UHGV virus genome: UHGV-0157529
From: a virus
Length of the DNA: 46,733 nucleotides
Strand: one strand, 5' to 3'
Shown here: positions 1 through 22,755 of the stretch, one piece after another
Numbering within the stretch: position 1 is the stretch's first letter
How the letters are laid out: each line of letters begins with the position of its first letter
Position numbers and translations under genes: made by a program
The notes under the pieces: generated by a model
What the model saw: only the letters and a program-made list of their open reading frames with translations
Database searches by the model: none
Told to the model about the DNA's origin: nothing

Positions 1-612
1 CCAGCCTCGGACGACCGCCGATGGTCTGCCGCCATGCCGGGAGTGCGGGAGCAACGAGGCAGTGTACAGCCCGTCGCGGATAGCAAAAAAGGACTGGATA
101 TGCAACCAGTGCCTACGCAGACGCCATCGGGCAGCCAAAAAAGAGCGTATTCAACGGGGACAATAGCCGATGTCCAAAAACTCATCAGCGGCTGGGCCGA
201 CCGCACTTTCCCTGATCGAACCATCGGTGAAGCAATCCTCAAGCTTAAAAAGGAGCTGGCCGAGCTTGACACTGCTGGCTACCTTGACGCGGGGGAGTTT
301 GCGGATGTCGCCATACTACTGCTCGATATCGCCCAGCTTGCCGGAATCGACATCGCCACCGCAGTGGCAAACAAGATGACTATCAATGAACGCCGTGTGT
401 GGAAGCGCCTTGAAGACGGCACACATCAGCATGTTGTCGATGGGGGTCGTACTGACGGGGTTGACCCGATTATTAGACGAATCAGTCTTGGAGATGTGGA
501 CCCAGTCAACCACAACGTAGAATCCCATCTCTGTGTCGTCTGCGGACGCAGATTCCCTTCTGAAAGCAGCAGAGCAACCCATTACCAGAACGAACACGGG
601 AGAAAGAAATGA
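1..612 (+). CDS. MazG-like nucleoside triphosphate pyrophosphohydrolase domain protein with a C-terminal C2H2-like zinc finger. The reading frame is open from nt 1 (first in-window ATG at 34; SD-backed ATG at 100), so it is probably 5'-truncated by the window edge and continuous with the ORF at 46461-46733.
   Basis: Translation carries MazG-family motifs (WADRTFPDRT...AILKLKKELAELD...EFADVAILLLDIAQLAGIDIATAV...RRVWKRL). The C-terminus HLCVVCGRRFPSESSRATHYQNEH fits C-x2-C-x12-H-x4-H. No stop occurs between nt 1 and 33 in this frame. Its TGA overlaps the next start (ATGA at 609). Confidence 0.6.
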   Translation, partial: PASDDRRWSAAMPGVREQRGSVQPVADSKKGLDMQPVPTQTPSGSQKRAYSTGTIADVQKLISGWADRTFPDRTIGEAILKLKKELAELDTAGYLDAGEFADVAILLLDIAQLAGIDIATAVANKMTINERRVWKRLEDGTHQHVVDGGRTDGVDPIIRRISLGDVDPVNHNVESHLCVVCGRRFPSESSRATHYQNEHGRKK

Positions 613-1211
613 AGATGACCCCCCGCGACCTGATGCGCGCCCAATATGTGAATCGCTGGCAGATAGTGCCGACATCTCGACCGCAGAACGTAGCGCAGCA
701 CTCATGGGCGGTGGCTATGCTGGCCATGGACCTGTGGTGTCGCCGGACTGGTGGCCAACCCGGCGAGGCAGCCACCGATGTAGAGCTGGGCAGAATAGCT
801 GTTATGGCTCTGTGGCACGATGCCCCGGAGGTCTTCACAGGTGATATCAACACACCGACCAAGATTTATCTAGAAGCAGGCCGCCGACTGGCCAACCTTG
901 AGATGACCGCTGGCCGCGCCTATGTGAACGCTGTAGGCGCTGGCGACACCACGGACGACGAGCATGACTTGTTGGTCCGGGTGGTGAAGATTGCCGACTT
1001 CCTCGAAGCTATGTATTGGCTCATGGAACACGGCGAGGGCCACTACGCCAACGACCAGTTACATGGGCTAAATCAGCGTTTCAACGACTATCTGGAAAAA
1101 CACGCCCCCCTGTGGCGAAACGCAGCCTTGGAGCTATGGAAGGACTTAAGCGACGTGAACGCAGAAACAACCACCTTCCAGCGCGTAAACCGTTTGATGG
1201 CGGGAAGCTGA
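609..1211 (+). CDS. HD-domain phosphohydrolase, YfbR-like 5'-deoxynucleotidase family (DatZ-like dATP/dAMP hydrolase candidate)
   Basis: Motifs QNVAQHSWAVAMLAM and ALWHDAPEVFTGDINTPTKIY match the YfbR H...HD...D signature. It is translationally coupled to the upstream gene (ATGA) and the downstream gene (TGATG). Confidence 0.7.
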   Translation: MKMTPRDLMRAQYVNRWQIVPTSRPQNVAQHSWAVAMLAMDLWCRRTGGQPGEAATDVELGRIAVMALWHDAPEVFTGDINTPTKIYLEAGRRLANLEMTAGRAYVNAVGAGDTTDDEHDLLVRVVKIADFLEAMYWLMEHGEGHYANDQLHGLNQRFNDYLEKHAPLWRNAALELWKDLSDVNAETTTFQRVNRLMAGS

Positions 1212-1636: not shown

Positions 1637-1935
1637 CCCTATTCCCGGTGGAGGCCGGGAACTTCACCTCACCATCCTCGACGGCTGAGATGGCCACCCA
1701 CACCCCGCTGGCTGACTTCCTGACGTTCTGGAAGGGTATACCTTTGGACGTCGAGAAAGAGCTCCGGGGTATCAGTACCGACTGGGATTCTAAAGGCAGG
1801 CTATATCACCCCACCATCGACGGGCCGGGGACCACTCTGGCGCACGTGATGCCCTTCCTGACCCCCGCTTGCCAAAGCCAGATACATGCTCTGCTAGCCG
1901 TCCACTATTACGGGTTGTTCGGTGCTACGCCATAA
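1606..1935 (+). CDS. hypothetical protein (weak call; overlaps the 3' end of the previous gene by 30 nt)
   Basis: 109-codon ORF preceded by GGAGG about 13 nt upstream. No recognisable motif. Confidence 0.25.
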   Translation: MAPTVALAGIALFPVEAGNFTSPSSTAEMATHTPLADFLTFWKGIPLDVEKELRGISTDWDSKGRLYHPTIDGPGTTLAHVMPFLTPACQSQIHALLAVHYYGLFGATP

Positions 1936-1939
1936 TATA

Positions 1940-1968
1940 TTGACAAAGGGCCCCAACCATGTTATAAT
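1940..1968 (+). promoter_or_regulatory. sigma70-type promoter cassette P1 (TTGACA-17-TGtTATAAT), followed by a GC hairpin (1979-1996) and the GGAGATAGAGAGATG leader
   Basis: Perfect -35 and -10 hexamers with a 17-bp spacer and an extended TGn. The same cassette recurs at least 9 more times in the window. Confidence 0.75.
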
Positions 1969-2021
1969 ATAGTTTCTAGGGGCGAGGCCCCGCCCCAACA
2001 GAGCAACCCGGAGATAGAGAG

Positions 2022-2912
2022 ATGAGCAAAGCAATCGTAGACAACAAGCTGGTGGAAGTGACTATGGTTAACGGCGGCTGGACCACCTACGTGGACCACA
2101 ACGGTGCAACCCGCAAAATCCGCAACAGCCAAGTGAACTCCACCCCCGCTGATGTGGCGGCGCTGGAAGCACTGGCCGAAGCTGGTGACACCAGTGCACA
2201 GGACAAGCTGATTGCGGCATCTGACAAAAACCACCCGGTGCTGGACCTCGACGCGACCTTCAAGTGCGACCGCTGCGAAACCGAATTCCTGTCGCAGGAG
2301 GCCCTCGATGAGCACATCGCCGAACACGACGCACCGAAGCCGCGCAGTTCGATGGTGATGCTGCTGACTGGCGGCAAGAAGTCGGCAGAGGTGCTGGAAC
2401 GCCGCGCCGCAGCGAAGGAGCAGAAACGCATCGAGGAAAACACCAAGAAGCCGCGTATCACCCGCTCCAACCTTGTTGCTGTTACCCGCTGCCCGGAGTG
2501 CGGCGGTGACGTGGCGCACCCTGACGACGGTTTGGCGAATTGCAAAGCGTGTGACTGGGAAGTGGATTTCACCGACAAAGAAGCGAAGATAGTGCCAGAT
2601 ATGACCCGCTACACCGTGGGCAAGGGTACGACTGTGACCGGGCGTAAAACCATCGACATCGACGACTACGTAGCCGACAAGCTGCGCGGTCTCGACCTCG
2701 AAGAGATTTACTCCTATACCGCAGCAGTGCTAGCCGAGCTGGGTGTCGAATACATAGGCACAGGCAGCAAGAAAATGCATTGCGGGCTGGGCGACCTGAA
2801 AGCCCGCTACAACCACCTGAACGTAGGGATGCAGCGTATGAACCTCGGAAACCTGCTCCGTGGCACGATGCGCCGTCTCGGAATGGAAACCCTGCCAGAG
2901 GTAGACGCATGA
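2022..2912 (+). CDS. early protein carrying a classical C2H2 zinc finger and a CxxC...CxxC zinc ribbon (putative nucleic-acid-binding regulator)
   Basis: FKCDRCETEFLSQEALDEHIAEH matches F-x-C-x2-C-x3-F-x5-L-x2-H-x3-H exactly. CPECGGDVAHPDDGLANCKAC is a zinc ribbon. First gene downstream of P1; GC3-rich. Confidence 0.7.
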   Translation: MSKAIVDNKLVEVTMVNGGWTTYVDHNGATRKIRNSQVNSTPADVAALEALAEAGDTSAQDKLIAASDKNHPVLDLDATFKCDRCETEFLSQEALDEHIAEHDAPKPRSSMVMLLTGGKKSAEVLERRAAAKEQKRIEENTKKPRITRSNLVAVTRCPECGGDVAHPDDGLANCKACDWEVDFTDKEAKIVPDMTRYTVGKGTTVTGRKTIDIDDYVADKLRGLDLEEIYSYTAAVLAELGVEYIGTGSKKMHCGLGDLKARYNHLNVGMQRMNLGNLLRGTMRRLGMETLPEVDA

Positions 2913-3235
2913 AAGCAAGAACAACAGAGGGCCAGTTCATGGAGCTGGCCTCCGCTCTGACCAATCAGATGGCCGATGCCGGGGTGTTCTCCGGCCTCAA
3001 CTTCGAGATAGATCCCAAGGTGCGGTCTATCCGGTTCTCGACAAACAATGGGGTGGTGATGTACTACCCAGCATCGAATATCTGGCAATATAAGCAGATG
3101 ACGTTCGAATCCAATATGGCCGATTTCATCGACTGGATGAAAGAATTTTATGGAAACGACCGAATCAAGCGCGACCACCTGCGGGTTGGACCCACTCGCC
3201 GGGAGAGGGAGCGTAAGCGGCAGGGCACTCTCTAA
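2909..3235 (+). CDS. hypothetical protein
   Basis: ATGA overlap with the upstream gene; 108 aa (MKARTTEGQF...). Confidence 0.5.
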   Translation: MKARTTEGQFMELASALTNQMADAGVFSGLNFEIDPKVRSIRFSTNNGVVMYYPASNIWQYKQMTFESNMADFIDWMKEFYGNDRIKRDHLRVGPTRRERERKRQGTL

Positions 3236-3238
3236 ATA

Positions 3239-3267
3239 TTGACAGCGCCCCCAACTTATGATATAAT
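3239..3267 (+). promoter_or_regulatory. sigma70-type promoter cassette P2 (TTGACA-17-TGaTATAAT) plus GC-rich element and GGAGATATAGAGATG leader
   Basis: Consensus hexamers with 17-bp spacer; the spacer carries the shared CCCCCAACTTATG sequence. Confidence 0.7.
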
Positions 3268-3312
3268 AAAATTTCAGGGGGCGGGGGCCCTCGGCAAACC
3301 GGAGATATAGAG

Positions 3313-3570
3313 ATGAACACAGTAAACCTGCACGAAGTGATGACCGAGGATGGCGTCAGCACCGACGTCAATGCATGCGTGGGCCTCCGCCGCGTTGACG
3401 GAAAAGAGTGGCATCATGGTCGTCTGTTCACTGGCGGCTTCCAATGTGTAGGTGACGAGGAAGTCGGATACCACGATATCTACGTGAGCGCAGCGTCCCA
3501 AGCCGAGGACCTCATAGAAAAAATCAAAGCCCGTGGCGTGGTAGACCTGCGCCACTGGGACGAAATCTGA
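3313..3570 (+). CDS. hypothetical protein
   Basis: Start sits at the end of the conserved leader. Followed by a UUCG-tetraloop hairpin (3579-3594). Confidence 0.6.
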   Translation: MNTVNLHEVMTEDGVSTDVNACVGLRRVDGKEWHHGRLFTGGFQCVGDEEVGYHDIYVSAASQAEDLIEKIKARGVVDLRHWDEI

Positions 3571-3607
3571 ACATCAACGGGGCCTTCGGGCCCCAAAGGA
3601 GACCGGA

Positions 3608-3835
3608 GTGGTAATTACTATCAAGGCAAAATCACCGGGCCGCTGGAACGTGTACCGCTCCGAGGGCCTGACAGCTAACGTCGCTGCTGGGCGTATCGTC
3701 CGCACTCAATCGCTGGGCGCGGTTAAAGCATATTACTTCGACCTAGAAGAACGCCGCCACGACCTCGGCTCCCTGCCGCGCGACTGGCCAAACCAAGTGA
3801 AGAAAATCCTCAAAACGGAGAGCAACCATGACTAA
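3608..3835 (+). CDS. hypothetical protein (GTG start)
   Basis: AAGGAG lies 6 nt upstream of the GTG start. Confidence 0.4.
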   Translation: MVITIKAKSPGRWNVYRSEGLTANVAAGRIVRTQSLGAVKAYYFDLEERRHDLGSLPRDWPNQVKKILKTESNHD

Positions 3836-4694
3836 GCAACACGAGTTAATCAAGGCCGTCACTGTGTACGGTCTCATGCAGTCGGTGAGCGAAATCCTGA
3901 ACGATCGCTTTACGTCCAATGGCCGCACCCTCAATGACAATAGCTGGCGCACCTGTAATGCGTACAGCCTCGAAGAGGGTTTCTGGAAGGCCGTACGCGA
4001 CCGCGATTTCGGGTCGGTGCTGACCTACTCCGCCATGCTGGCCGGGCGTGGCCGCAACGTGGCCGATTTAATCATGGATAGCATCGACACACTGTCAGAA
4101 AGAATCGGGAGAATGGAGACCGTAGCCGCCACCAACAGGGATACTATCCGTCTGCAGCGTACCACTATCGAGCAGCATGAAAAGACCATCGCCGACCTGC
4201 GGGCCAAGCTGGGCGGCGATACGGTATCTGCGCCGGGGCCTTATCAACACCTCGGGTGTGGGGTAGCCCTTGAGTCAGAGCGCATCCCAGAACTCTGCTA
4301 TTCGGTCGAGACCGTATGCGGTGAGCTGGTGGAGACCATCGTCATTCAGGGTGACCCGGCGGCGGTGAAAGATTTGGTGCAGGCCGTACGCGCAGAGCAT
4401 ACCACCTGCACGGGGCCGAGCGGCGACGTTAGCGTCACCTTGGATTCATTAAAGACGAAAGAAGACCCGATAATTGCCGGGACGGTGGCCGCTGCGGTGG
4501 CCGATATATACGGCAATAAGCGCATCGATCCTAAGGTAGAGATGGCCAAGGCGTGGCATGGTGGGGAATATGGTGCTGTGGTAAGCGCTATGGCAGCCCT
4601 CCACGACGCCGGGAAGGACCCTGTGGCGTTCATTAAGCGCATGAAGAACGTGGCAGTTCCGCCCGACAACGACGAAGCGGTACGACAGGCGTAA
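3828..4694 (+). CDS. hypothetical protein
   Basis: 288 aa; overlaps the previous stop. A bidirectional terminator follows. Confidence 0.6.
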   Translation: MTKQHELIKAVTVYGLMQSVSEILNDRFTSNGRTLNDNSWRTCNAYSLEEGFWKAVRDRDFGSVLTYSAMLAGRGRNVADLIMDSIDTLSERIGRMETVAATNRDTIRLQRTTIEQHEKTIADLRAKLGGDTVSAPGPYQHLGCGVALESERIPELCYSVETVCGELVETIVIQGDPAAVKDLVQAVRAEHTTCTGPSGDVSVTLDSLKTKEDPIIAGTVAAAVADIYGNKRIDPKVEMAKAWHGGEYGAVVSAMAALHDAGKDPVAFIKRMKNVAVPPDNDEAVRQA

Positions 4695-4707
4695 TCTTTT
4701 GTAAAAC

Positions 4708-4734
4708 GGCGGGGGCTAACGCCCCCGTTCTTGT
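4708..4734. terminator. rho-independent terminator, apparently bidirectional
   Basis: Stem CGGGGGC / GCCCCCG (7 bp) with loop TAAC, flanked by TTTTGTAAAA on the 5' side and TTCTTGT on the 3' side. Confidence 0.6.
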
Positions 4735-4758
4735 AGACGACAACTAAAGGCAATAGGT

Positions 4759-5190
4759 ATGAAACCCATCCGACATATCCAGCAGTGGGACCAGCGCTCG
4801 TGCGTGGCCGCTTGCCTCCTCATGATGACCGATTTGGAGACCATACCGGAGCTTAGGACGGCCATAGACAAATTGTACAAGCGCTCGGGCAATATCCACG
4901 CGTGCTGCAGCCTCCTGAGCATCCCGGCGAGGACCGTGAACTGGCCAGCCGGGCAGTGGATTGAGGAGGGCGGCATCTATCTGGTGTATGCCGTGAAGGA
5001 CACCGAGTTCCACGCCCTCATCGTCGATTGCCGCGGCAGTGAGCCCGTGGTGCATGACCCCGCTCGCGGCTGGGGCGACGGCGAGTTCGTCTGGGACGAC
5101 CCGGAGCCGTGTTCCGGCCAGAGGGTGCTGAAAAACAGCATGTACCTCCCGGCCCTCCGCTTTATGGACAAGAACTGGTACAATCATTAG
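4759..5190 (+). CDS. putative papain-like (C39-like) cysteine peptidase domain protein
   Basis: QQWDQRSCVAACLLMM resembles the Q...C-x-A-C-L-x-M motif of C39 peptidases. A downstream His (EFHALIV) is present. Confidence 0.4.
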   Translation: MKPIRHIQQWDQRSCVAACLLMMTDLETIPELRTAIDKLYKRSGNIHACCSLLSIPARTVNWPAGQWIEEGGIYLVYAVKDTEFHALIVDCRGSEPVVHDPARGWGDGEFVWDDPEPCSGQRVLKNSMYLPALRFMDKNWYNH

Positions 5191-5204
5191 GGTAAAGACG
5201 ACTA

Positions 5205-5233
5205 TTGACTCGGGCCCCAACCTGTAGTATAAT
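5205..5233 (+). promoter_or_regulatory. sigma70-type promoter cassette P3 (TTGACT-17-TATAAT) plus hairpin GGCCCCGCTGTGGGGCC and leader GGAGATACAGAGATG
   Basis: Hexamers with a 17-bp spacer. Confidence 0.65.
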
Positions 5234-5275
5234 GTACGTAAGGCCCCGCTGTGGGGCCAGTGCGGAGATACAGAG

Positions 5276-5644
5276 ATGAAAAGAATAACGGCAATATTGA
5301 TAGCATCGGCGGCTTTCATTGGGTGTTCATATGTAGGCGGTGCTAGCGCAAGAACCCTCCCGGACTGCGAAGCGATAGCTGCCAGCTACTTCGACAAGCA
5401 TCTTGGTGGCAAGTACGCCAGCATCCGGGACTTCATCGTAGACCAAGACGCGGAAGTATGTGGAATGGGGGCGACATTCAAAAAGAGCGGGGCGACCGAG
5501 GCCGAGGCCGCGAAGTTCCTCGACAAGGTGCGTGCTGCGGGTCTCGCGAAGGCGGTAACGAAGCGCGAGATGGACGAGACCGTCGAAGTGATTAACCGTA
5601 AAAGCGTGATGTTCATGGCCGGATTTAGGGGATACGTCGAATGA
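5276..5644 (+). CDS. secreted / lipoprotein-like early protein
   Basis: The N-terminus MKRITAILIASAAFIGCSYVGGASA looks like a signal peptide, with either a lipobox-like FIGC or an SPase I site ASA. Confidence 0.55.
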   Translation: MKRITAILIASAAFIGCSYVGGASARTLPDCEAIAASYFDKHLGGKYASIRDFIVDQDAEVCGMGATFKKSGATEAEAAKFLDKVRAAGLAKAVTKREMDETVEVINRKSVMFMAGFRGYVE

Positions 5645-5964
5645 AAATCCAGAACATCCTCTCCACTCGCGGGAACGACTTCACGGCCAAGATGGTCTGT
5701 GAGTACTGCGGTGCTACCGCTGTACTGAGCGACGGCTATCACGACGCCTTCTACCACAACCACGTAATACCCTGTATCAACTGCCCAGTCTGCGACCAGA
5801 ACCACTACGGGGAGTCTACCGAGCTCGGTGAAGTCCGCAAGCGCCGCGAGCACGTAAATGGTGCAGCCACCCTTAAAGAGGTGATGTCATACAACAAGCC
5901 GCCCCGCGCCGAAGAACGCGAGGACGAAGAAGGCAAACTGCTGAAAAACAGAGGGACATACTAA
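5641..5964 (+). CDS. Cys-rich putative zinc-binding protein
   Basis: CEYCG...CINCPVCDQ motifs. ATGA coupling to the previous gene. Confidence 0.5.
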   Translation: MKIQNILSTRGNDFTAKMVCEYCGATAVLSDGYHDAFYHNHVIPCINCPVCDQNHYGESTELGEVRKRREHVNGAATLKEVMSYNKPPRAEEREDEEGKLLKNRGTY

Positions 5965-6359
5965 TGAGCGAGAAACACAACCCAGTGCTGTACGGCACAC
6001 TCGACCAGACCAACCCGGTCGGCCTACCCGGTGGCACTCCGGCCCTGACGACCCTGCTGTACAGGGTCTGTGACCAGAACAACGATAAGTTCGACGAGGC
6101 TTGCCGCTTAATCTGCCTGTTCCTCGACAAAAAAGCCGAGCTGGACGGCGAGCCGCTCAAGAAGCTGGAACGTTTGATGGGATATGTGCAGAACGGGACA
6201 GACGGTATTATCAGCCTGTTCCAAGACGATGCGACCATGGACTATGGTATAAGTCACCGCGCTCCCGGCAAGGCGACCAACGACTGGACGGCATATGGTA
6301 AATCGCTGACCGGGGCCATCAACAAAGCATATAACGAGCATAAGGATGACTGCGAATGA
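5964..6359 (+). CDS. hypothetical protein
   Basis: 131-aa ORF; TAATG overlap with the previous gene. Confidence 0.5.
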   Translation: MSEKHNPVLYGTLDQTNPVGLPGGTPALTTLLYRVCDQNNDKFDEACRLICLFLDKKAELDGEPLKKLERLMGYVQNGTDGIISLFQDDATMDYGISHRAPGKATNDWTAYGKSLTGAINKAYNEHKDDCE

Positions 6360-6793
6360 AAAAACATAGCGCATGGCAGAAGGACCGCAACCGGGTCCGC
6401 CGCCTCAACCGTGAAGTAAAGGCCATCGTTCGCCGCGACGACGCGCGGGCCGAATGGTTCAACAGCCGCCACGCCTTTATGCTGGAGGAGAACCGTAGGA
6501 ATTGCCTACCCGGTGGGTGTTGGTTTATCTGTCCCGGCCACTATACCGACCAATGGCCAAGCGTAGATGATATGTTTATCGAGGTGACACACGGTGACTT
6601 AGATGATTCCGGAAACTGGGACGTGCCCGAGGGCCTGTATGTGGTGCGCCGTGTGGCCCACGAGAGCCTGTTCGATAAACTACTGAATGTCACCGATGTT
6701 AACACTGGCCACAACTACCATCTGTGGTTCCCACGTCAGGGCCATCGCGTAGTGTCCTGTGGCGAGGTAGGGGAAACACCATGGCTGGATTAA
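6356..6793 (+). CDS. hypothetical protein
   Basis: 145-aa ORF; ATGA overlap with the previous gene. Confidence 0.5.
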   Translation: MKKHSAWQKDRNRVRRLNREVKAIVRRDDARAEWFNSRHAFMLEENRRNCLPGGCWFICPGHYTDQWPSVDDMFIEVTHGDLDDSGNWDVPEGLYVVRRVAHESLFDKLLNVTDVNTGHNYHLWFPRQGHRVVSCGEVGETPWLD

Positions 6794-7245
6794 TGGTAAC
6801 GATCGCCATCATCAAGGTGGTGTGCTATGGTCTAGCGCTTGGGGCGCTGCTCGTTATGGCGCTGCTGGGCCTGACCATGTTGGGCGGCACTCTGGCGCGG
6901 GGCTGGGACATCGTGGTCCAAAGGCTGGTGGTCGCCCTGCAAAAGCTCATCCCGCGCGACTGGGCCAAGGAAAAGCGAAAGGAGGGTATTGTCTTCTGCT
7001 CCGAGGTCTGGTACTATTTGCCAGTGGCCGCCCGGTGGATAACCCTCGACCGTTGGGGCCTAGTCCAGTGCTGGCAGGCTAAGCCGACGTACTGTCCTGA
7101 GGACGGTGAATGGTACAGCCACCAGCTAAACCCTCCACATGATGTGGGTAGTATGAGCGACGAATGGATGGCCCCCTATGCATGGCTGACTGAGCCGCCG
7201 ATACAGGCCCTGCCGGAAGACATCTATGAAATCGACGAAGCGTGA
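6793..7245 (+). CDS. membrane protein (alternative start at 6781)
   Basis: Hydrophobic N-terminal region VTIAIIKVVCYGLALGALLVMALLGLTMLGG. TAATG overlap with the previous gene. Confidence 0.45.
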   Translation: MVTIAIIKVVCYGLALGALLVMALLGLTMLGGTLARGWDIVVQRLVVALQKLIPRDWAKEKRKEGIVFCSEVWYYLPVAARWITLDRWGLVQCWQAKPTYCPEDGEWYSHQLNPPHDVGSMSDEWMAPYAWLTEPPIQALPEDIYEIDEA

Positions 7246-7552
7246 CGCACTCTTTAAACGTGCAGCCGCACCTAAACCAAAATTCGCCCGTGGGACGCGG
7301 GCATCCTTTCAGTCATGCATCGACCCGAACATCAACGGGACGGGGCTGGTGGTGGAAGCGAAATATTTCCCCAAGGACGGGCGTTTCCTTTACACCGTGG
7401 AGCGTGAGGTCGCCGGGTCGGTCCAGCGGTACACGTTCTTCGAGGAGGAGATGGCCAAACCGAGTGACCCTAACTTCAAGGACAGAAGACAAATAACGCT
7501 CGACCTGTGCGAGCACATCTACGACGATCATACCAGAGATTTAGAGATATGA
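7226..7552 (+). CDS. hypothetical protein
   Basis: 108-aa ORF. Confidence 0.45.
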   Translation: MKSTKRDALFKRAAAPKPKFARGTRASFQSCIDPNINGTGLVVEAKYFPKDGRFLYTVEREVAGSVQRYTFFEEEMAKPSDPNFKDRRQITLDLCEHIYDDHTRDLEI

Positions 7553-7752
7553 AACCTGAATACATCGCATATGGCATCTACGTCTACATGATTATTGGCT
7601 TTTGCTTGTGGCTATGGGCCTTTGTTGACGACGCTGTCACCGGGAACCGTCACCGTGGCGGCATAGTAGTGACTATCTCCACGCTGGTGGCCATGCTGCT
7701 AGGCTGGCCGTTCCTTGTGGCGGACCTGACGAAGTCACGGGGGCGAAGATGA
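7549..7752 (+). CDS. small membrane protein
   Basis: ATGA overlap with the previous gene and preceded by GAGATTTAGAGATATG. The translation MKPEYIAYGIYVYMIIGFCLWLWAFV is hydrophobic. Confidence 0.45.
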   Translation: MKPEYIAYGIYVYMIIGFCLWLWAFVDDAVTGNRHRGGIVVTISTLVAMLLGWPFLVADLTKSRGRR

Positions 7753-8546
7753 GCAAGAAAAAGCCTGTCAAGTACGAACATCTTGAGCAATGGGTGAACA
7801 ACCACGACGCCCGAATCACACAGGCCGGGTCCTATCCTGCGCAGGTCGTGTTCATTCTGGAGGAAGACCTCAAAGCGTTCTGCAAGGCCATGGGCCTGCC
7901 TCACATGGGCCCACTGTCTGGCGGTCGCTGCTATCGCATGGCTGGTGACGACTTCTTCGCGGTGGTCCTGTGCTTCAAGCTCGACTCCGGCCAGCTAATC
8001 AGCGCCATCGCCCACGAGTGCTACCATGCGCTAAACTTCATTTATAAGCAGTACGGTTCGCGGCACTCGCTGAGGAACGATGAGCCAGCAGCCTACCTAA
8101 TCGGCCATATGGCCTACTACGCCACCAAATTCATCGAGGAGCAGGGCTATGCACTCATTAACACCGGAGCTATCGGCACAGATGCAACGGATAGCGGAGA
8201 TTTACGGGCAGAGTTATCTAGTCCGCAACAAGGACGGGTCGATGGAAGTGCTGAGCCCGCAACAGGTGCTGGTGGTCCAGTTCCACGGCAAGAGCCCCAC
8301 GAAGAGTCTCCCCGGTTCCTTCCGTGTGGGTGCTTTGGGAGATGCACTGGACACGGCGGCGGACTGACTCACACCTGCCCGACCTGTGGCGAAGAGATAC
8401 CAAATCCGCCAGCATACCACGTGTGCACCCGACCTAGGGGTGCAGCAATGAAGCAATGCGACCGCTGCGGTGTGCAGTATTTCGCCACCCACAAACACTC
8501 ATGCAACAAACACGATATAACGGCTTGGGAGGCCAAACATGAATAA
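7749..8546 (+). CDS. protein with an HExxH metallopeptidase-like motif (N-terminal part) and a C-terminal zinc ribbon. The central 8150-8367 segment looks non-coding in this frame (see findings).
   Basis: AIAHECYHAL is an HExxH motif. The C-terminus carries CPTCG...CDRCG. Between about 8150 and 8367, codon third positions are AT-rich in this frame and GC-rich in the +1 frame. Confidence 0.4.
   Translation: MSKKKPVKYEHLEQWVNNHDARITQAGSYPAQVVFILEEDLKAFCKAMGLPHMGPLSGGRCYRMAGDDFFAVVLCFKLDSGQLISAIAHECYHALNFIYKQYGSRHSLRNDEPAAYLIGHMAYYATKFIEEQGYALINTGAIGTDATDSGDLRAELSSPQQGRVDGSAEPATGAGGPVPRQEPHEESPRFLPCGCFGRCTGHGGGLTHTCPTCGEEIPNPPAYHVCTRPRGAAMKQCDRCGVQYFATHKHSCNKHDITAWEAKHE
8149..8367 (+). CDS. alternative-frame ORF with good coding statistics and its own SD; it is either a separate overlapping gene or evidence of a frameshift or indel within the 7749-8546 gene
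   Basis: GAGGAG lies 8 nt upstream of the ATG. GC3 is high. The peptide ELSAQMQRIAEIYGQSYLVRNKDGSMEVLSPQQVLVVQFHGK looks protein-like. Confidence 0.35.
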   Translation: MHSLTPELSAQMQRIAEIYGQSYLVRNKDGSMEVLSPQQVLVVQFHGKSPTKSLPGSFRVGALGDALDTAAD

Positions 8547-8805
8547 GACCCTTAATACCCAGTTAGTACTCGACCATAAGCTTAACGCCGAGGCGGTGGA
8601 CTTCATCGAACGGCTGGTGGCTGCTGGCCATGAAATCCACCTGACCGACGGCGGACCGCAGCCCATCTTTACTATCGGCGCAGGCAAGACCCCATTCAGT
8701 GGCAAGACGGTGATGGAGATAGCCAAGTGGGCCCCTAAAGAGCATCTGCTGGTGCAGGCTTTCCGTGTGCTGTCCAAAGCCTACCCTAATGGGATGGGGG
8801 CCTGA
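8539..8805 (+). CDS. hypothetical protein
   Basis: 88-aa ORF; ATGAATAA overlap with the upstream stop. Confidence 0.5.
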   Translation: MNKTLNTQLVLDHKLNAEAVDFIERLVAAGHEIHLTDGGPQPIFTIGAGKTPFSGKTVMEIAKWAPKEHLLVQAFRVLSKAYPNGMGA

Positions 8806-8921
8806 TGGACTTTGACATAGGACCATATGTCATCGGCGTGGCTGTCGGTGCGTTGTCCGTGGGCCTTGTGTGGACGCTGACCGTCCTGTTTCCTACTGAT
8901 TGCGACGAAGTGCCGTAGCGC
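8805..8921 (+). CDS. small hydrophobic peptide (38 aa)
   Basis: TGATG overlap with the previous gene. MDFDIGPYVIGVAVGALSVGLVWTLTVLFP is transmembrane-like. Confidence 0.3.
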
Positions 8922-9075
8922 GTGAGCGGGTGGCCGCGACATGGAAGTCGCCCTTCCCCGGCCCGCGCAGCCTGCTAAACTCCGATTACGGGGGTATTGA
9001 CAGGCCGTCATATGATATGGTGTACTAATAGTGGGCATATCTGCCCCAACCCCGCATCTCAATGGAGAGAACCTA

Positions 9076-9434
9076 TGCAACGTCTTATGACCCTAATCGC
9101 AGAACTAACTACGTGGGAGGTGGCTTTTGGTATGGCATTCGCCCTGCTGCTGGCCATGTTCCTCGTACCTATGTATGTCCTGCACTGTACCGGGCGCAAT
9201 CTGCTCAATAGCAACGTCGGGCGCATCGCGCATCGTGAGTGGATGTTAGGCCATACGGTCATTATCTACAGCCGATGGCCGATATCCAAGGGCTGGCAAG
9301 GCTGCAGTGCCCGTAAGAAGACATCGCGATCGTGTATGCTGACTATGGGGACCGTGCAGATTGAGCTTATTCGCCTATGCCGTTCACAGGCCCCCATCTA
9401 CAGGGCAACGTACAACAACGCCAAGAAAGCTTGA
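9076..9434 (+). CDS. small membrane protein
   Basis: GGAGAG lies 6 nt upstream of the ATG. VAFGMAFALLLAMFLVPMYVL is a transmembrane segment. A degenerate promoter cassette lies upstream (TTGACA at 8997). Confidence 0.4.
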
Positions 9435-9459
9435 CCCGGTTGGGCCCGTGTGCTATACT
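9431..9459 (+). promoter_or_regulatory. sigma70-type promoter cassette P5 (TTGACC-17-TGcTATACT). The -10 element is bracketed by a GGGCCC...GGGCCC palindrome (9441-9466).
   Basis: Hexamers with a 17-bp spacer. Leader GAGATAAGAGATAAACAAGATG. Confidence 0.6.
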
Positions 9460-9491
9460 GGGCCCTCCTACTGAGATAAGAGATAAACAAG

Positions 9492-9872
9492 ATGAAAGCC
9501 AAGAAGATAAAAGATATCCATATCTTGCTGCGTAACGGTCGCTGGACAGCTGTATGGCAGGGTGAGGTTTGCCGCATCCAGAACGACAAGAGACGTCGCG
9601 CCCGTGTGGTCCGCCACGCTGATTCCCCCGAGCATGCTCTGGTATCCCTACTTGCCAGTGAGATATTAGAGCCTCAAAAAAGAGGCTACATGCTGGCACA
9701 CGCCGAGTTCATCGTATGGCTTGAGCAAAACGGCCTTATGTCCCTGCGCAGGGCGCTTCTGTTTGCTAAAGGCGACGGCTGGGACGGTCAGAGGAATCTG
9801 GAGGCTGTCAGGGTATATCGGGAATGGCGAAGGGAGCAAACGAGCGGTACTTCTCTTGGCCTCGTAGAATAG
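9492..9872 (+). CDS. hypothetical protein
   Basis: 126-aa ORF, followed by a terminator. Confidence 0.55.
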   Translation: MKAKKIKDIHILLRNGRWTAVWQGEVCRIQNDKRRRARVVRHADSPEHALVSLLASEILEPQKRGYMLAHAEFIVWLEQNGLMSLRRALLFAKGDGWDGQRNLEAVRVYREWRREQTSGTSLGLVE

Positions 9873-9896
9873 CCCCGGTACGTATGTAGCTGGTCG

Positions 9897-9931
9897 GCCT
9901 CTCGATTCAACGGAGAGGCTCCCGTTTTCTA
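9897..9931 (+). terminator. rho-independent terminator
   Basis: Hairpin GGCCTCTCG-ATTCAA-CGGAGAGGC followed by TCCCGTTTTCT. Confidence 0.6.
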
Positions 9932-9948
9932 AAGATGGAGAACAAAAG

Positions 9949-10179
9949 ATGGCAAAAGTAAGACTGACTCTGGAGAGTCTGGGTAGCACTCACCAGATGG
10001 ACCCGGTAGGACAGGGCGAAGCTGTGGACCGCATGGTCGAATATGTAGGCCGTCGCTGGGATATCGACGACGAAGAGCGGGCAGAACTGCAGGTAGTCAT
10101 CGATGCGGTAGTCATCACTGGCGCGCCGCTTGAATATAGCGGGTTGGCCCCGATTTACGTTAAGGTAGAGAAAGCATGA
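9949..10179 (+). CDS. hypothetical protein
   Basis: GGAGAA SD; 76 aa. Confidence 0.45.
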   Translation: MAKVRLTLESLGSTHQMDPVGQGEAVDRMVEYVGRRWDIDDEERAELQVVIDAVVITGAPLEYSGLAPIYVKVEKA

Positions 10180-10457
10180 ACATCACGCGATTCGCAGTAC
10201 ATGTAATCAGCAACGGGGTATTGATGGCCGCCGTCAGTGGTCAGACACACGTGGTCGGTCAGTTCGCACCGCACATAGGCGAACTGGTGTCCGGGTTCGA
10301 AGGCAGCACTATGGGCCCTAGTCTCGCAGACCACGTCATTAACAGCCATATGAAGAACGCCGTGGACCAGAGCGACACCCGGCGAATCGTCATCCCGGCT
10401 GGCCATAAGTTAGAGATAGTCATCACGCCGATGTGCTCGGTCATGGGAGGGGTATGA
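10176..10457 (+). CDS. hypothetical protein
   Basis: ATGA overlap with the previous gene. Confidence 0.45.
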   Translation: MNITRFAVHVISNGVLMAAVSGQTHVVGQFAPHIGELVSGFEGSTMGPSLADHVINSHMKNAVDQSDTRRIVIPAGHKLEIVITPMCSVMGGV

Positions 10458-10714
10458 TGAGCAGACCTGTTTATAATGTAGTCGTCCAGACCGTGTGGCC
10501 GGACGGGTTCAAATCCGAGGTACGGGGCGATGCCATCACCACGACCCGTAAGACGCTGGAGGCCCTGCGCCGGGCGGGGGTCTACTACTACCAGCCAGTC
10601 CCTGCTGCACTGCGCGACGCGACGCAGAGGGTGGCCGCGCGGTATATCCCGGAGGCTACTATTGAAGCTGGTCTCGCCACCCTTAATGTCCGCTGTGCGA
10701 AGGAGGGCGTATGA
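10457..10714 (+). CDS. hypothetical protein (alternative start at 10454)
   Basis: GGGAGGGG SD; TGATG overlap with the previous gene. Confidence 0.45.
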   Translation: MSRPVYNVVVQTVWPDGFKSEVRGDAITTTRKTLEALRRAGVYYYQPVPAALRDATQRVAARYIPEATIEAGLATLNVRCAKEGV

Positions 10715-11034
10715 TACCTATGATTAAAGTAGTCCTGCTGGCTGGCCCGGCACTAATAGCCTCGTACACGGCGCACCCGACCCGCATCAAAGACCCACGG
10801 GGCGGCATCATGCAGGCACTAGAACTGGACCTGATGGACCTGCTCAACCTGTCGGACACGGCCTGTATCCCATCGGTAGTCCACCGCGACCTGACCGAGG
10901 CCATTAGTCGGGTGATTGACGGCGATAGCCCATCCCGTGAGCCTGCAGTCATCGGCCTGTCCCACCACGCGGGGCGACACCCGATGTACAAGGGCGGGGT
11001 GGCTCCGATATCGGTCCGGGTGGTCCGTTGCTAA
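10711..11034 (+). CDS. hypothetical protein with a hydrophobic N-terminus
   Basis: ATGA overlap with the previous gene. Confidence 0.45.
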   Translation: MIPMIKVVLLAGPALIASYTAHPTRIKDPRGGIMQALELDLMDLLNLSDTACIPSVVHRDLTEAISRVIDGDSPSREPAVIGLSHHAGRHPMYKGGVAPISVRVVRC

Positions 11035-11129
11035 ACGTGGGATTGACACCAGCCACACGGATGTGGTATCACGCGCGCGCTTATCACGTGTGTATGCGGA
11101 GCATTGTCGCCCGTCGACACATTCAATGT

Positions 11130-11400
11130 CGATGGAACGGTGGAACGGTGGAACGGTACATAGTACGAACTGCCGTGGACTCTCTCTCTGTCCCCGGAGG
11201 ACGGGGTCTCCGGTTCTCACGTGTGAAAAGAGAGCCGTTCCATGGGCCGTTCCACCGGTGCTAGGTTGGGGTGGAACGGTGGCCCCAACTACGCACGACG
11301 ACCCGGTGCCGCACAATCCCCTCTTTGGGTGTCCGGGAACGTTCCCGGCGTTCCACGTTCCACGCCCCAATCCCCATCTGTTCCGCCATCTGTTCCATCG
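11130..11400. repeat. iteron cluster A: about 10 copies of TGGAACGG / CCGTTCCA in both orientations (three perfect tandem copies at 11133-11156), a GGGAACGTTCCC palindrome (11335-11346) and GTTCCAC GTTCCAC
   Basis: Read directly from the sequence. A diverged copy occurs at 35538-35640. Confidence 0.7.
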
Positions 11401-11422
11401 CTGTGGTACGTGCAAAAGATAC

Positions 11423-11451
11423 TTGACAGCCGCCCCAACTTATGGTATAAT
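11423..11451 (+). promoter_or_regulatory. sigma70-type promoter cassette P6 (TTGACA-17-TGgTATAAT) plus hairpin GGTGGCAACAGGCCACC and leader GGAGATTAGAGATG
   Basis: Full consensus hexamers with extended -10 and an A-rich upstream region. Confidence 0.75.
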
Positions 11452-11498
11452 AAAGTCTCTGGTGGCAACAGGCCACCGAGCAACAGCGGAGATTAGAG

Positions 11499-11720
11499 AT
11501 GAAGACACACAAGACCAAGATGACCTGCACCGCATCCACTAACCCTAACCTGTTCGCAGTAGGCCAGAAGTACGAGGCCGAGGGAAACGCGACCGACGGC
11601 GGGTATATCAAGTGCCGCATCGGGATGGAGCACCGCATCACCCCGACTCACACTATCACGCAGTCGTTGTACGTCCATACTTCCGGTGCTGACCGTTTCA
11701 TCTTCCAGATTAAGGGCTGA
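11499..11720 (+). CDS. hypothetical protein
   Basis: First gene downstream of P6. Confidence 0.55.
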   Translation: MKTHKTKMTCTASTNPNLFAVGQKYEAEGNATDGGYIKCRIGMEHRITPTHTITQSLYVHTSGADRFIFQIKG

Positions 11721-11723
11721 GCG

Positions 11724-12434
11724 ATGGACCTGAACAAAGTAAAAGAGCGCATCGCCAAGCTGCTGGCGATGGCCGAGAACAACGGCAACGAACACGAGGC
11801 CGCCCAAGCGGCGGCCCGCGCCCGTAAGCTGATGGACCAGTACCAGCTAGACCACATGGACGTGGAGCAGGCCGCCTCTGACTTCGGGTATGAATATGCT
11901 GGCGAGTCCTACGCGTTCCAGCCCCGATGGAAAGGATGGCTGGCCACCGCTGTGGCTAAGTTCAACGATTGCCAATGCCGCCTTGTCAGAGTGCCCGGTG
12001 ACGGCCCCCGCAAGCGCTGGCGCACCCGCTGGGAGGGCTACGCAGAAGACGTGACCCTGTGTTTGGCGATGTTCGAGTATTTTACTGCCGTCATCGAGAC
12101 CGCTACGTCCAAAGACCAGTTATGTCGCGGATATAAAAGATATAACGCACGGGTAGGGACCATCTTCAAGGAATATATGGTGACCACCCTCACCCGGCGT
12201 CTGAGTGAGCTGATGGACCAGCGCAAGGCCGAGACCCCAGTGACATCGACGGGCACAGGGCTGGCCGTGTACAAGGCCAATCAGGTGGCGGCCCAGTTCG
12301 GCGAGGCCACCTATAAGCAGCAGAAGTCCAAAGCGGTGGACGACATGACCACCGAAGAGAAACACGCCGCCCTGCGTGGTATTCAGGAGGGCAAAGCGGT
12401 TCACATCAACGCACTGGGGGATAATCATGAGTAA
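11724..12434 (+). CDS. hypothetical protein with an N-terminal DUF2786-like motif
   Basis: KERIAKLLAMAENNGNEHEAAQAAARARKLM resembles the DUF2786 N-terminal helix. Confidence 0.5.
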   Translation: MDLNKVKERIAKLLAMAENNGNEHEAAQAAARARKLMDQYQLDHMDVEQAASDFGYEYAGESYAFQPRWKGWLATAVAKFNDCQCRLVRVPGDGPRKRWRTRWEGYAEDVTLCLAMFEYFTAVIETATSKDQLCRGYKRYNARVGTIFKEYMVTTLTRRLSELMDQRKAETPVTSTGTGLAVYKANQVAAQFGEATYKQQKSKAVDDMTTEEKHAALRGIQEGKAVHINALGDNHE

Positions 12435-12558
12435 ACGTCAGTTAATGATAGACGCATCTCGATTCCGCAACAAGAAAGAGAAGCGCACGTTCATACGAGA
12501 CATGCTGCTCACGCTGGCCGCAGTAGCATTAATCCTGTTAATCCGTTCCCTGTAGGAG
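12427..12558 (+). CDS. small membrane-anchored peptide (43 aa)
   Basis: ATGA overlap with the previous gene. C-terminal LLTLAAVALILLI is a transmembrane segment. Confidence 0.3.
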
Positions 12559-12565
12559 CACCGAT

Positions 12566-12679
12566 ATGTTTATCGAAGCACTGAGCAAAATGAATAAATA
12601 CTCCGCCCGCCGCGTCTGTCTGGTGTATGTCCCGGCAGTGTTCTGGATAGCCGCTGCTGTCGCCCTATATCTCGCATAG
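12566..12679 (+). CDS. small hydrophobic peptide (37 aa)
   Basis: GGAG SD about 7 nt upstream. A truncated duplicate of its 3' end lies at 13040-13075. Confidence 0.3.
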   Translation: MFIEALSKMNKYSARRVCLVYVPAVFWIAAAVALYLA

Positions 12680-12687
12680 CAAAATAC

Positions 12688-12716
12688 TTGACGGGCCCCC
12701 CAACTTATGGTATAAT
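12688..12716 (+). promoter_or_regulatory. sigma70-type promoter cassette P7 (TTGACG-17-TGgTATAAT) plus hairpin and leader GGAGATACAGAGATG
   Basis: About 90% identical over roughly 100 bp to cassette P8. Confidence 0.7.
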
Positions 12717-12759
12717 AAACATATAGGGGCAAGGGGCCCCTCCCAGCGGAGATACAGAG

Positions 12760-13002
12760 ATGAAAGCAATTTGCACACTTACCAAATCAACAATGATGCG
12801 CGGCGGATTTCTGGCTAACGATTCGAATATGGAACTTTTCGCGACCTGCGCAAAAATAGCCAGATCGGAACATGATGCGGATAGGGGGATGTATAGAATC
12901 TGCTTCACTCGTGGGTTGCTTCAGGGGAAAACAGCGTATGCAAAGGACTTTGAAGAACTGAACGTAAAATGTTCCCAGGTCGCTATAGATTTTTTTAACT
13001 AA
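12760..13002 (+). CDS. low-GC moron gene, hypothetical protein (80 aa)
   Basis: Visibly AT-rich (about 43% GC) against a GC-rich background. Flanked by the duplicated P7 and P8 cassettes. Confidence 0.55.
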   Translation: MKAICTLTKSTMMRGGFLANDSNMELFATCAKIARSEHDADRGMYRICFTRGLLQGKTAYAKDFEELNVKCSQVAIDFFN

Positions 13003-13082
13003 CCATCATACCCCACCAGCGCGGGGCCAATAAGTAGGTGCAAAGTCACCGCTGTGGCCCTGTATCTCGTATAACAAAATAC

Positions 13083-13111
13083 TTGACAGGCCCCCCAACT
13101 TATGGTATAAT
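13083..13111 (+). promoter_or_regulatory. sigma70-type promoter cassette P8 (TTGACA-17-TGgTATAAT) plus hairpin and leader GGAGATTAGAGACATG
   Basis: Near-duplicate of P7. Confidence 0.75.
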
Positions 13112-13155
13112 AAACATATAGAGGCAAGGGGCCTCTCCCAGCGGAGATTAGAGAC

Positions 13156-13401
13156 ATGGCACAGTATATCGGCAAATGCACCAAGGCGGAATTCGTAGAA
13201 GGCAATGCGCATCTGGGAGTCCAGAACATTGAACGTCTGGTAGCTCGTTGCGAGGCATTCACCAACCCTGAAGGTGCTCTGTTCATGGCCGGTATGGCAT
13301 ACGACAACGTCTCCGACATGGACAACGACGCAGAGGTCATCGAAAACATGGACAGCATAATCGATAGCCTCGTGAATGCGTTCGGCTTTGAACTGAAGTA
13401 A
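13156..13401 (+). CDS. hypothetical acidic protein
   Basis: 81-aa ORF. Confidence 0.55.
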   Translation: MAQYIGKCTKAEFVEGNAHLGVQNIERLVARCEAFTNPEGALFMAGMAYDNVSDMDNDAEVIENMDSIIDSLVNAFGFELK

Positions 13402-13412
13402 GGAGATTAGAG

Positions 13413-13814
13413 ATGAAAATGACCTACATCGGCATGAACAACGGCAGCATCAAAGAAGCACATCGTCTGCAGGCGGCCCTGCGCGAAACCCGCGACATGC
13501 TCGAAGACTCATACACGGTGGGCAACTATATTGCGGTACGCGAGCTGCACCGCATCGAGCGCGAAGAACTGGCATCCCTCCGCATGGTCATGCGCTGCGA
13601 TGCGGTCCACGCGACCGCCCTGCCGCAGGATGGGCAGCATTCCTACCACTGGCACAAGGCAATGCGCCCGGCCCGTCAGGCATACGTGGCCCAATGTCAG
13701 AGCGCCCGCCCGGCAGCCGACCAGAACGACGAAGAGAATGAGACCCAGCAACACCAAGCATGGCTCATCGAGCAGGGCCACGACTACGCGGTATTCGGTG
13801 GGGTGATTCTGTGA
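13413..13814 (+). CDS. hypothetical protein
   Basis: Preceded by AAGGAGATTAGAGATG, the leader motif without a promoter. Confidence 0.55.
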   Translation: MKMTYIGMNNGSIKEAHRLQAALRETRDMLEDSYTVGNYIAVRELHRIEREELASLRMVMRCDAVHATALPQDGQHSYHWHKAMRPARQAYVAQCQSARPAADQNDEENETQQHQAWLIEQGHDYAVFGGVIL

Positions 13815-22351: not shown

Positions 22352-22380
22352 GAGGGGCCCATAGTGGCCCCTCTGTTATA
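22352..22380 (+). terminator. hairpin attenuator / terminator after the capsid gene
   Basis: Stem GAGGGGCC / GGCCCCTC (8 bp) followed by TGTTATA. Confidence 0.4.
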
Positions 22381-22719: not shown

Positions 22720-22755
22720 TAAATCGGGGGCTATGGCCCCCTACAGGAGACCCCC

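Follow-up and report, generated by a model that had tools for sequence, protein, structure and literature searches.

Promoter early stem-loop (PeSL) cassettes have been described in T4-like myoviruses (RB49/phi1, T4/PST and KVP40/nt-1; Arbiol et al. 2010, PMC2839356; Comeau et al. 2014, PMC4122927). They consist of strong sigma70-like promoters with polyG/polyC stem-loops located upstream of, over, between or downstream of the promoter hexamers, and they sit in hyperplastic regions upstream of ORFans, where they mediate insertions and deletions (indels) (PMC2839356). Both terminator activity and the formation of mini-circles by cassette recombination have been shown (PMC2839356; PMC4122927). 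Here, we analyse a repeated element of this kind in the virus genome UHGV-0157529, a stretch of 46,733 nucleotides hereafter called the window. The element combines a sigma70-type promoter, a GC-rich stem-loop and a translation leader. Judging from their sequence, its copies are likely to be PeSL-like compact expression units read by the host sigma70 RNA polymerase, in a new phage lineage.

The resemblance to PeSLs, proposed in a preliminary description of the window, proves apt. Sigma70-consensus promoters are joined to G-run/C-run stem-loops, which occupy three of the PeSL placements (following the -10, spanning it, or enclosing the -35). The cassettes cluster in a variable, ORFan-rich region, directly upstream of small genes without assigned function. 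Insertions and replacements between close relatives are bounded by cassettes, and one ORFan lies between two cassette copies where relatives have a single one. However, the window is not a T4-like myovirus but a 47-kb PurZ/DpoZ siphovirus related to phages PMBT28, VLCpiS6a and K21lambda1, and it carries about 11 copies, versus about 50 in PeSL phages. Its unit also adds a fixed double-GAGAT leader and a C-tract in the promoter spacer, neither of which appears in the parts of the PeSL description available to us, and its A/T-rich upstream stretch is modest (the 20 nt upstream of the promoters average 55% A+T, versus 44% genome-wide).

Two other systems invite comparison. A transcript that begins with a stem-loop preceded by few unpaired nucleotides can be shielded from 5'-end-dependent decay (RNase E, RppH, ompA leader). 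In seven cassettes of the window, a stem-loop would begin within 2-4 nt of the predicted 5' end, a geometry that would hinder such decay; unlike the ompA type, however, window hairpins also occur behind promoterless genes and, in three cassettes, upstream of the predicted start. The second system is Vibrio phage phiVC8, whose early-arm intergenic regions combine predicted promoters with overlapping inverted repeats, including at least one TTGACG-N17-TATAAT promoter followed by a hairpin and a Shine-Dalgarno sequence; promoters and terminators that overlap are annotated in its record (NC_027118). Its repeated hairpin is longer, however, and is a different palindrome (GGGTGTCGACGTCGACACCC), with neither a CCCCAAC spacer nor a GAGAT leader.

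In the literature, we found no paper on the promoters of DpoZ or PurZ phages. What is new in the window is the lineage, the presence of the leader within the unit, a spacer and a leader conserved across genera, and the setting of a genome expected to carry 2-aminoadenine (Z). With these cassettes, the PeSL type and its link with gene shuffling would no longer be confined to T4-like myoviruses but would reach a small siphovirus lineage, with a repeated unit that can include a standard ribosome-binding leader. They also offer about ten defined near-consensus sigma70 promoters in phages expected to carry Z, which makes reading by the host polymerase directly testable, and, as compact portable expression units, they are potentially useful for engineering these phages.

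Promoters, spacers and leaders

We named the cassettes P1 to P10, plus a degenerate copy at 8997 (Table 1), and scored their promoters against TTGACA-N17-TATAAT over 12 positions. The match is perfect at 1940, 3239, 11423 and 13083, reaches 11/12 at 5205 and 12688, and 10/12 at 9431, 39170 and 44835. A scan of the plus strand yields four sites at 12/12 and six at 11/12 or better, whereas no site of at least 10/12 is found on the minus strand of the whole window. In 100 first-order Markov simulations, the mean numbers expected by chance are 0.0 at 12/12 and 0.17 at 11/12 or better, and chance or base composition was thus rejected as the source of the promoters. All eleven positions listed in the preliminary description exist, nine of them as strong plus-strand promoters, but its account of the other two needs correction. 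At 40165, the -35 is weak (TTGTAC) and the site relies on an extended -10 (TGaTAGAAT, with TATAAT in two relatives). The copy at 8997 retains TTGACA but has TGTACT as its best -10, without the key A at position -11; the four GenBank relatives still keep this copy, with 85% mean column identity. A TG at -15/-14 is present in 10 of the 11 sites (the exception being P3, at 5205), and the spacer measures 18 nt at 8997 and 44835.

Every gene of the window, which looks like a complete 46.7-kb phage genome, is on the plus strand; the genome is that of a virulent siphovirus of the PurZ/DpoZ (2-aminoadenine) clade. Its replication genes (35.8-46.7 kb) run on into 1-1.9 kb, about 30 small genes occupy 1.9-14 kb, and packaging, lysis and structural genes lie at 14.2-35.2 kb, as shown by comparison with annotated relatives. 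Eight of the 11 cassettes fall within the small-gene region (1.9-13.2 kb) and none in the structural module, where no such promoter site occupies an intergenic position. The initial view of modular promoter, stem-loop and leader units is supported; they are placed upstream of small genes, most of which have no Pfam or annotated PHROG function. A search of the whole window against Rfam at gathering thresholds gave no match.

Each cassette fills nearly all of an intergenic gap of 53-110 nt, or the end of a longer gap, and contains up to four modules: an A/T-rich stretch with the -35, the spacer with the extended -10, the GC stem-loop, and the translation start. The last 8 nt before the -35 are clearly A/T-rich in P1, P2, P5, P6 and P7, but not in P8 and P9. 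In P1, P2, P3, P5, P6, P7 and P9, the spacer holds CCCCAAC followed by (C/T)TATGn, an extended -10 of the TRTGn type, joined to TATAAT or TATACT. The plus strand contains 12 copies of CCCCAAC, versus a simulated mean of 3.9, and seven of them lie inside promoter spacers. The 16-mer GGCCCCCAACTTATGG, given earlier as the conserved spacer, has five matches at up to three mismatches, versus 0.37 expected.

The leader is equally recognizable and deserves to be called fixed, as it had been: GGAGATAGAGAGATG has six matches at up to three mismatches, versus 1.1 expected. Its sequence is GGAGAT-N1-3-GAGATG, in which GAGAT occurs twice as a direct repeat, the second copy contributing the AT of the start codon. 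Among all of the approximately 66 gene starts, 13 carry the double-GAGAT leader, and nine of these lie behind a cassette promoter. Three more are promoterless (7536, 13401 and 39602), and the last precedes the primase gene, behind a TGaTATACT with no -35 (35739-35783). P10 (40165) and the 8997 copy carry other leaders. At 35739-35783, where no -35 can be recognised, the TGaTATACT is followed by the leader-like GAGATATAGAGAT and then by the primase gene, which starts with GTG. Absent from the preliminary list, this element may, to judge by these motifs, be a promoter that depends on an activator or on the extended -10 only.

Four relatives are 82-90% identical to the window (megablast): Klebsiella phages VLCpiS6a and K21lambda1, Salmonella phage PMBT28, and 'Pseudomonas phage PSA28'. 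A fifth is an IMG/VR contig, partly recovered as two stretches. All cassettes, including those at 8997 and 40165, are syntenic in the four GenBank relatives, except for 13083 (P7), an additional copy in the window; the two stretches of the IMG/VR contig show eight of the cassettes. Absence of the cassette from related phages at syntenic positions, which would have counted against the preliminary description, is thus not seen. Cassettes resemble their orthologues in other genomes more than their paralogues in the same genome (except for the 12688/13083 pair), so that the copies predate the divergence of these phages; for the same reason, we rejected concerted evolution of the cassettes within a genome. 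The duplication and shuffling proposed in the preliminary description therefore hold only in part, the copies other than the 12688/13083 pair being old.

Conservation extends to other genera. Providencia phage Kokobel2 (DpoZ 68% identical, 47.5% G+C) carries TTGACA-N4-5-CCCCAAC-(C/T)TATGn-TATAAT and GGAGAGATTAGAGATG at four sites, three of which have no hairpin. Acinetobacter phage vB_AbaSI_2 (DpoZ 63% identical) carries TTGACAaggCCCCCAATCTATGGTATAAT, a downstream hairpin and GGAGATTAGAGATG. An alignment of 15 sequences shows no variation in TTGAC, in two C's of the spacer, in the -10 core or in the leader. Recent copying alone would hardly explain a spacer and leader retained in phages whose DpoZ is only 63-68% identical; their retention speaks for functional constraint or for horizontal spread.

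Several observations on the relatives may be added. The Z-genome clade of the window phage also includes PMBT28 and Acinetobacter phage SH-Ab 15497. The PSA28 record (MZ089737) is 86-89% identical to the window where aligned, with cassettes of the enterobacterial type whose layout is identical to that of the Klebsiella and Salmonella phages; its assignment to a Pseudomonas host looks doubtful, and no host is given in the record. VLCpiS6a has an extra 'pyrophosphatase' gene (29714-30064) about 80 nt upstream of the degenerate 8997 cassette (corresponding to window positions 8903-8919), which is missing from the window and K21lambda1.

Stem-loops and gene exchange

In seven cassettes (P1, P2, P3, P5, P6, P7 and P10), the stem starts 9-11 nt past the last base of the -10, in agreement with the hairpin reported downstream of each promoter. 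This does not apply to P4 and P8, in which the inverted repeat spans the -10, nor to P9 (44835), in which it encloses the -35 and no hairpin follows the -10. Stem-loop energies range from -10 to -24.5 kcal/mol across the cassettes, and every orthologous cassette has a hairpin (-7 to -19 kcal/mol). Among paralogues, the downstream stems have six different sequences at a fixed position. Among orthologues, one pair of P6 is G-C in three sequences, A-U in two and G-U in two; one pair of P5 is U-A in four and A-U in one, with U-G at another pair; and one pair of P2 is G-C in five and A-U in one. The G-U states can pair only in plus-strand RNA. In three relatives, the inverted repeat of P4 is kept with another sequence (GGGGC/GCCCC).

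Perfect GC hairpins (at least 6 bp) show strong intergenic enrichment: 15 of the 36 in the genome lie within the 7.5% of it that is intergenic, and six intergenic ones follow stop codons with no promoter nearby. Given these bare hairpins and the variable placement in cassettes, the hairpin can be regarded as an independent module. Minus-strand 'terminator-like' matches at 12741, 13136 and 44848 were rejected as candidates, as they consist of a cassette hairpin and, after it, the A/T-rich promoter read in complement, and all genes are on the plus strand.

Two further observations concern RNA structure. RNAalifold, applied to 11452-11495 and 3268-3315, predicts pairing of the leader GGAGAU or GAGAU with the bases that directly follow the -10 (GUCUCU or AUUUC); the GC hairpin would then be enclosed and the Shine-Dalgarno sequence possibly masked, depending on the actual start site. 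Moreover, a 31-nt element (CGATTCAACGGAGAGGCTCCCGTTT(T/G)CTAAA), a hairpin followed by T's, occurs at 9903-9933 and 35412-35442 with 97% identity (about 100 nt around: 9837-9935 and 35346-35442). One copy follows gene 9492-9872 and the other the last tail gene, and they are the only canonical-looking intrinsic terminators seen.

The spacer C-tract may itself have a structural origin. We scanned metagenomes with TTGACA-N3-5-CCCCAAY-N0-1-TATGnTATAAT and recovered 65 loci, representing 62 distinct sequences. In about half of these 62 promoters, a G-tract directly upstream of TTGAC pairs with the spacer C-tract, which is the design of P9. The pair adjacent to the loop covaries (GC 10, GU 8, AU 7, CG 4 and UA 2), with a score above that of 499 of 500 shuffles. 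Judged from these pairings, the spacer C-tract would be the 3' arm of a stem-loop embracing the -35, which is one of the PeSL subclasses. The 5' arm has no counterpart in most window cassettes, although the C-tract is conserved across genera. A similar promoter, GGGG-TTGACAAAAA-CCC, lies ahead of the tRNA genes of Bruynoghevirus MR299-2. The idea of CCCCAAC as a strongly universal phage spacer motif was not borne out, as permuted-spacer controls in IMG/VR gave 18, 15 and 8 loci versus 28 for CCCCAAC, an excess of only about 2-fold. The leader is missing from the IMG/VR loci found as single hits, which probably match by chance. A blastn comparison of two promoter-bearing metagenome contigs with GenBank phages was uninformative.

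Gene content changes precisely at several cassettes, with swaps at the ATG of P3, P5, P6 and P7. Behind P5, four unrelated genes are found in six genomes, and homology ends at the ATG. Behind P3, an extra 122-aa gene (5276-5644) is present in the window and three relatives, but absent from PMBT28 and PSA28, in which the same leader joins the next gene; just upstream of P3, an 804-bp gene of the four GenBank relatives is missing from the window. Behind P6 and P7, two window-specific genes replace the MTKFEFYG gene of the relatives. For one of them, gene 13156-13401, which takes the place of the MTKFEFYG gene, a leader copy (13401-13415) forms the right edge of the replacement.

The P6/P7 pair is the clearest case. 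A 110-nt segment, comprising the end of the upstream ORF (open reading frame) and the whole cassette, is duplicated with 89% ungapped identity (87.5% over a slightly longer gapped alignment). The 80-aa gene between the copies has its best match in Klebsiella Webervirus KW1 (75% protein identity, the first 20 nt of the ORFs being identical), which has no cassette. The layout of 12644-13158 (cassette, foreign gene, cassette) is what the PeSL model would lead one to expect if a circle with a single cassette and a single gene had integrated into a resident cassette.

Function, rival explanations and the 2-aminoadenine setting

If the cassettes are expression units as we propose, transcription would start about 7 nt after the -10, and the stem-loop of seven cassettes would begin at +3 to +5 of the mRNA. 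A 5' stabilising role, suggested in the preliminary description, is thus geometrically possible in seven of the eleven; it does not suit the others, nor the six bare hairpins behind genes. Both these stem-loops and the bare ones probably act, in addition, on transcription coming in from upstream by blocking or terminating it, which is the function attributed to PeSL stem-loops; we consider a role at the 3' end of upstream transcripts at least as likely as one of 5' stabiliser. Finally, as 80-110-nt islands of homology beside unrelated genes, the cassettes may serve as recombination sites, which would explain both the exchange exactly at the cassette ATG and the foreign gene between two cassette copies.

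No RNA polymerase, sigma, anti-sigma or DNA-binding domain was detected by domain searches in the approximately 40 non-structural ORFs, and the phage presumably depends on the host polymerase. The promoters may be chemically unusual. The window contains the Z-cluster genes (encoding PurZ, DatZ and a MazZ-like protein) together with a DpoZ-type PolA, the gene set of Z-genome phages, which had escaped notice in the preliminary description. Its PolA shares 93-99% identity with the polymerases of PMBT28 and its relatives, 63% with an annotated DpoZ and 44% with that of phiVC8. The PMBT28 Z-cluster genes lead to dZ production and incorporation in E. coli (PMC12944874); the PurZ of that phage is listed as characterised (bioRxiv 10.1101/2025.10.22.683976). 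Thus, from its gene content, the window genome probably carries 2-aminoadenine, including at the -10 adenines, and injected DNA would present -10 elements reading TZTZZT.

Several points weigh against our interpretation. According to the literature, sigma factors are sensitive to 2-aminoadenine substitution, and host recognition of these -10 elements on injected DNA is not self-evident. The stability of the seven downstream hairpins does not significantly exceed that of dinucleotide shuffles (z from -0.2 to -2.0); we therefore do not use stability as evidence, and the case rests on position, conservation and covariation. This covariation amounts to three double changes in a set of 6-7 close genomes, and pairing is lost at a few positions (in P3 of PSA28 and P5 of the IMG/VR contig). 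No intergenic GC hairpin is followed by a T-run, when read by eye, and none is thus a canonical intrinsic terminator. The 'early' timing of the cassettes is a guess based on position only. As for recombination, about half of the approximately 10 indels or replacements in 1.9-14 kb touch a cassette, and about 30% of the junctions carry one; this is close to expectation if events fall at gene junctions, and a general link with recombination is not statistically established. On sequence grounds, a specific signature appears only in the P6/P7 case.

It is possible, if unlikely, that the hairpins are only stops or 3'-end protectors of the upstream genes, lying near promoters owing to the short gaps and playing no part at the 5' end, and that the cassette is not a unit. 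The bare hairpins after stop codons would fit, as would P4, P8 and P9, whose stem-loops lie partly or wholly upstream of the predicted start and hence outside the new transcript, the three Kokobel2 cassettes with promoter and leader but no hairpin, and the fact that a PeSL stem-loop was shown to terminate transcription (PMC2839356). However, seven hairpins keep the same 9-11 nt distance from the -10 although the gaps allow other positions, promoter, hairpin and leader were duplicated together in P6/P7, and U-tracts are missing. The C-tract and the inverted repeats could instead be DNA operators at which a phage or host protein switches the promoters on or off, and neither RNA structures nor mere relics. 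CCCCAA(C/T) lies at a fixed distance from the -35 in P2, P3, P5, P6, P7 and P9, and is kept in the Providencia and Acinetobacter phages though the first 3-4 spacer bases vary, while the spacers of sigma70 promoters are normally not conserved in sequence. Moreover, the repeats of P4 and P8 bracket the -10, a typical operator position, and the P4 spacer has GTTGGG, the reverse complement of CCCAAC. We nevertheless judge operators unlikely: the non-structural ORFs offer no candidate DNA-binding, sigma or anti-sigma domain, the stems differ from cassette to cassette and hence provide no common operator, and the G-U intermediates fit RNA pairing. The metagenomic pairing of C-tract with G-tract upstream of the -35, with its covarying closing pair, indicates a structural origin, and the roughly 2-fold excess of CCCCAAC (28 versus 8-18 IMG/VR loci) is modest.

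The near-consensus design, with its perfect -35, 17-bp spacer and TG extended -10, might also be a specific adaptation to the 2-aminoadenine genome, offsetting poorer recognition or melting of a Z-containing -10, with U-tracts missing after hairpins because an rU:dZ hybrid is not weak. This fits the presence of PurZ, DatZ, MazZ-like and DpoZ-type genes, the TG in nearly all cassettes (10/11), the TGTGnTATAAT consensus promoters followed by hairpins in the Z-genome podovirus phiVC8, and the lack of any intergenic hairpin with a T-run after it. Yet equally perfect promoters and GC stem-loops exist in T4-like PeSLs and in Bruynoghevirus MR299-2, which are not known to carry Z, and a canonical-looking hairpin with TTTT does exist at 9903-9933, so that we regard this adaptation as quite improbable. 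Another idea starts from the C-tract and leader being nearly letter-identical in Klebsiella/Salmonella, Providencia and Acinetobacter DpoZ siphoviruses: the C-tract (CCCCAA-C/T) and the double-GAGAT leader would be recognition sites for clade-specific factors, a dedicated expression code of these Z-genome phages. We hold this to be a long shot; if true, such factors might let host RNA polymerase use 2-aminoadenine promoters, or time the shut-off of early mRNA.

Feature coordinates and repeat arrays

Table 1. Positions in the window of the cassettes, of leaders and GC hairpins found outside them, and of selected genes
Feature	Position	Strand	Description
P1	1925-2024	+	A/T-rich stretch, -35 TTGACA 1940-1945, CCCCAAC spacer, TGt-TATAAT 1963-1968, hairpin 1979-1996, leader GGAGATAGAGAGATG, ATG 2022 of 296-aa gene without assigned function; layout identical in five relatives
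P2	3224-3315	+	-35 3239, -10 3262-3267, hairpin 3277-3292, leader GGAGATATAGAGATG, ATG 3313
P3	5190-5278	+	-35 TTGACT 5205, -10 5228-5233 without TG, hairpin 5242-5258 (GGCCCC/GGGGCC), leader, ATG 5276
Degenerate cassette	8997-9077	+	TTGACA, 18-nt spacer, TGg-TGTACT, hairpin 9033-9046, then CCCCAAC, GGAGAG, ATG 9075
P4	9431-9494	+	-35 TTGACC overlapping upstream stop codon, inverted repeat GGGCCC...GGGCCC 9442-9465 around TATACT 9454-9459, leader GAGATAAGAGAT 9 nt before ATG 9492; stem -17.2 kcal/mol, z -2.1
P5	11408-11501	+	-35 11423, -10 11446-11451, hairpin 11460-11478 (GGTGGC/GCCACC), leader GGAGATTAGAGATG, ATG 11499
P6	12644-12762	+	Left copy of 110-nt duplication (12644-12753), -35 12688, -10 12711-12716, hairpin 12725-12741, leader, ATG 12760
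80-aa gene between P6 and P7	12760-13002	+	Only in the window genome among compared relatives
P7	13039-13158	+	Right duplication copy, -35 13083, -10 13106-13111, hairpin 13120-13136 (AGAGGC/GCCTCT), leader GGAGATTAGAGACATG, ATG 13156
P8	39170-39228	+	-35 TAGACA overlapping end of SNF2 helicase gene, 13-bp inverted repeat 39178-39206 containing TGa-TATACT 39193-39198, leader GGAGATAAGAGATG, ATG 39226; stem -24.5 kcal/mol, z -5.5
P10	40165-40254	+	-35 TTGTAC, TGa-TAGAAT 40188-40193, hairpin 40202-40220 (GGCGGGG/CCCGCC), different leader, ATG 40252
P9	44828-44899	+	Upstream of SSB gene; stem-loop GGGCCCC-TTGACC-GGGGCCC 44828-44847 with -35 in loop, 18-nt spacer with CCCCAAC, TGg-TATACT 44859-44864, leader GGAGATAGAGAGATG, ATG 44897; -18.8 kcal/mol, z -2.0
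Promoterless leader	13401-13415	+	GGAGATTAGAGATG, right edge of replaced gene
Further promoterless leaders	7536-7551, 39602-39614		
Bare GC hairpin	3579-3594	+	No promoter, directly after stop codon
Other bare GC hairpins	4710-4727, 22352-22373, 22726-22741, 40532-40552, 41425-41444		
MazZ-like pyrophosphohydrolase	34-612	+	C-terminal part, gene spans window ends from about 46461; Pfam dATP/dGTP pyrophosphohydrolase
DatZ-like HD hydrolase	609-1211	+	Pfam HD/YfbR-like
DpoZ-type PolA	42943-44820	+	Protein identity to DpoZ polymerases
PurZ-like adenylosuccinate synthetase	45276-46448	+	Pfam Adenylsucc_synt

Two non-coding regions of the window, 11035-11498 and 35232-35780, resemble each other. 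Arrays of the 8-mer TGGAACGG occur in both (11130-11420 and 35529-35700), with direct as well as inverted copies, and so does a 44-nt repeat (11149-11192 and 35632-35675, 82% identical), which at 35632-35675 is followed by a 10-bp hairpin (35667-35691). The first region precedes P5 and the second the primase gene. From their sequence, these arrays look like iterons, belonging to a replication origin or a regulator-binding array.

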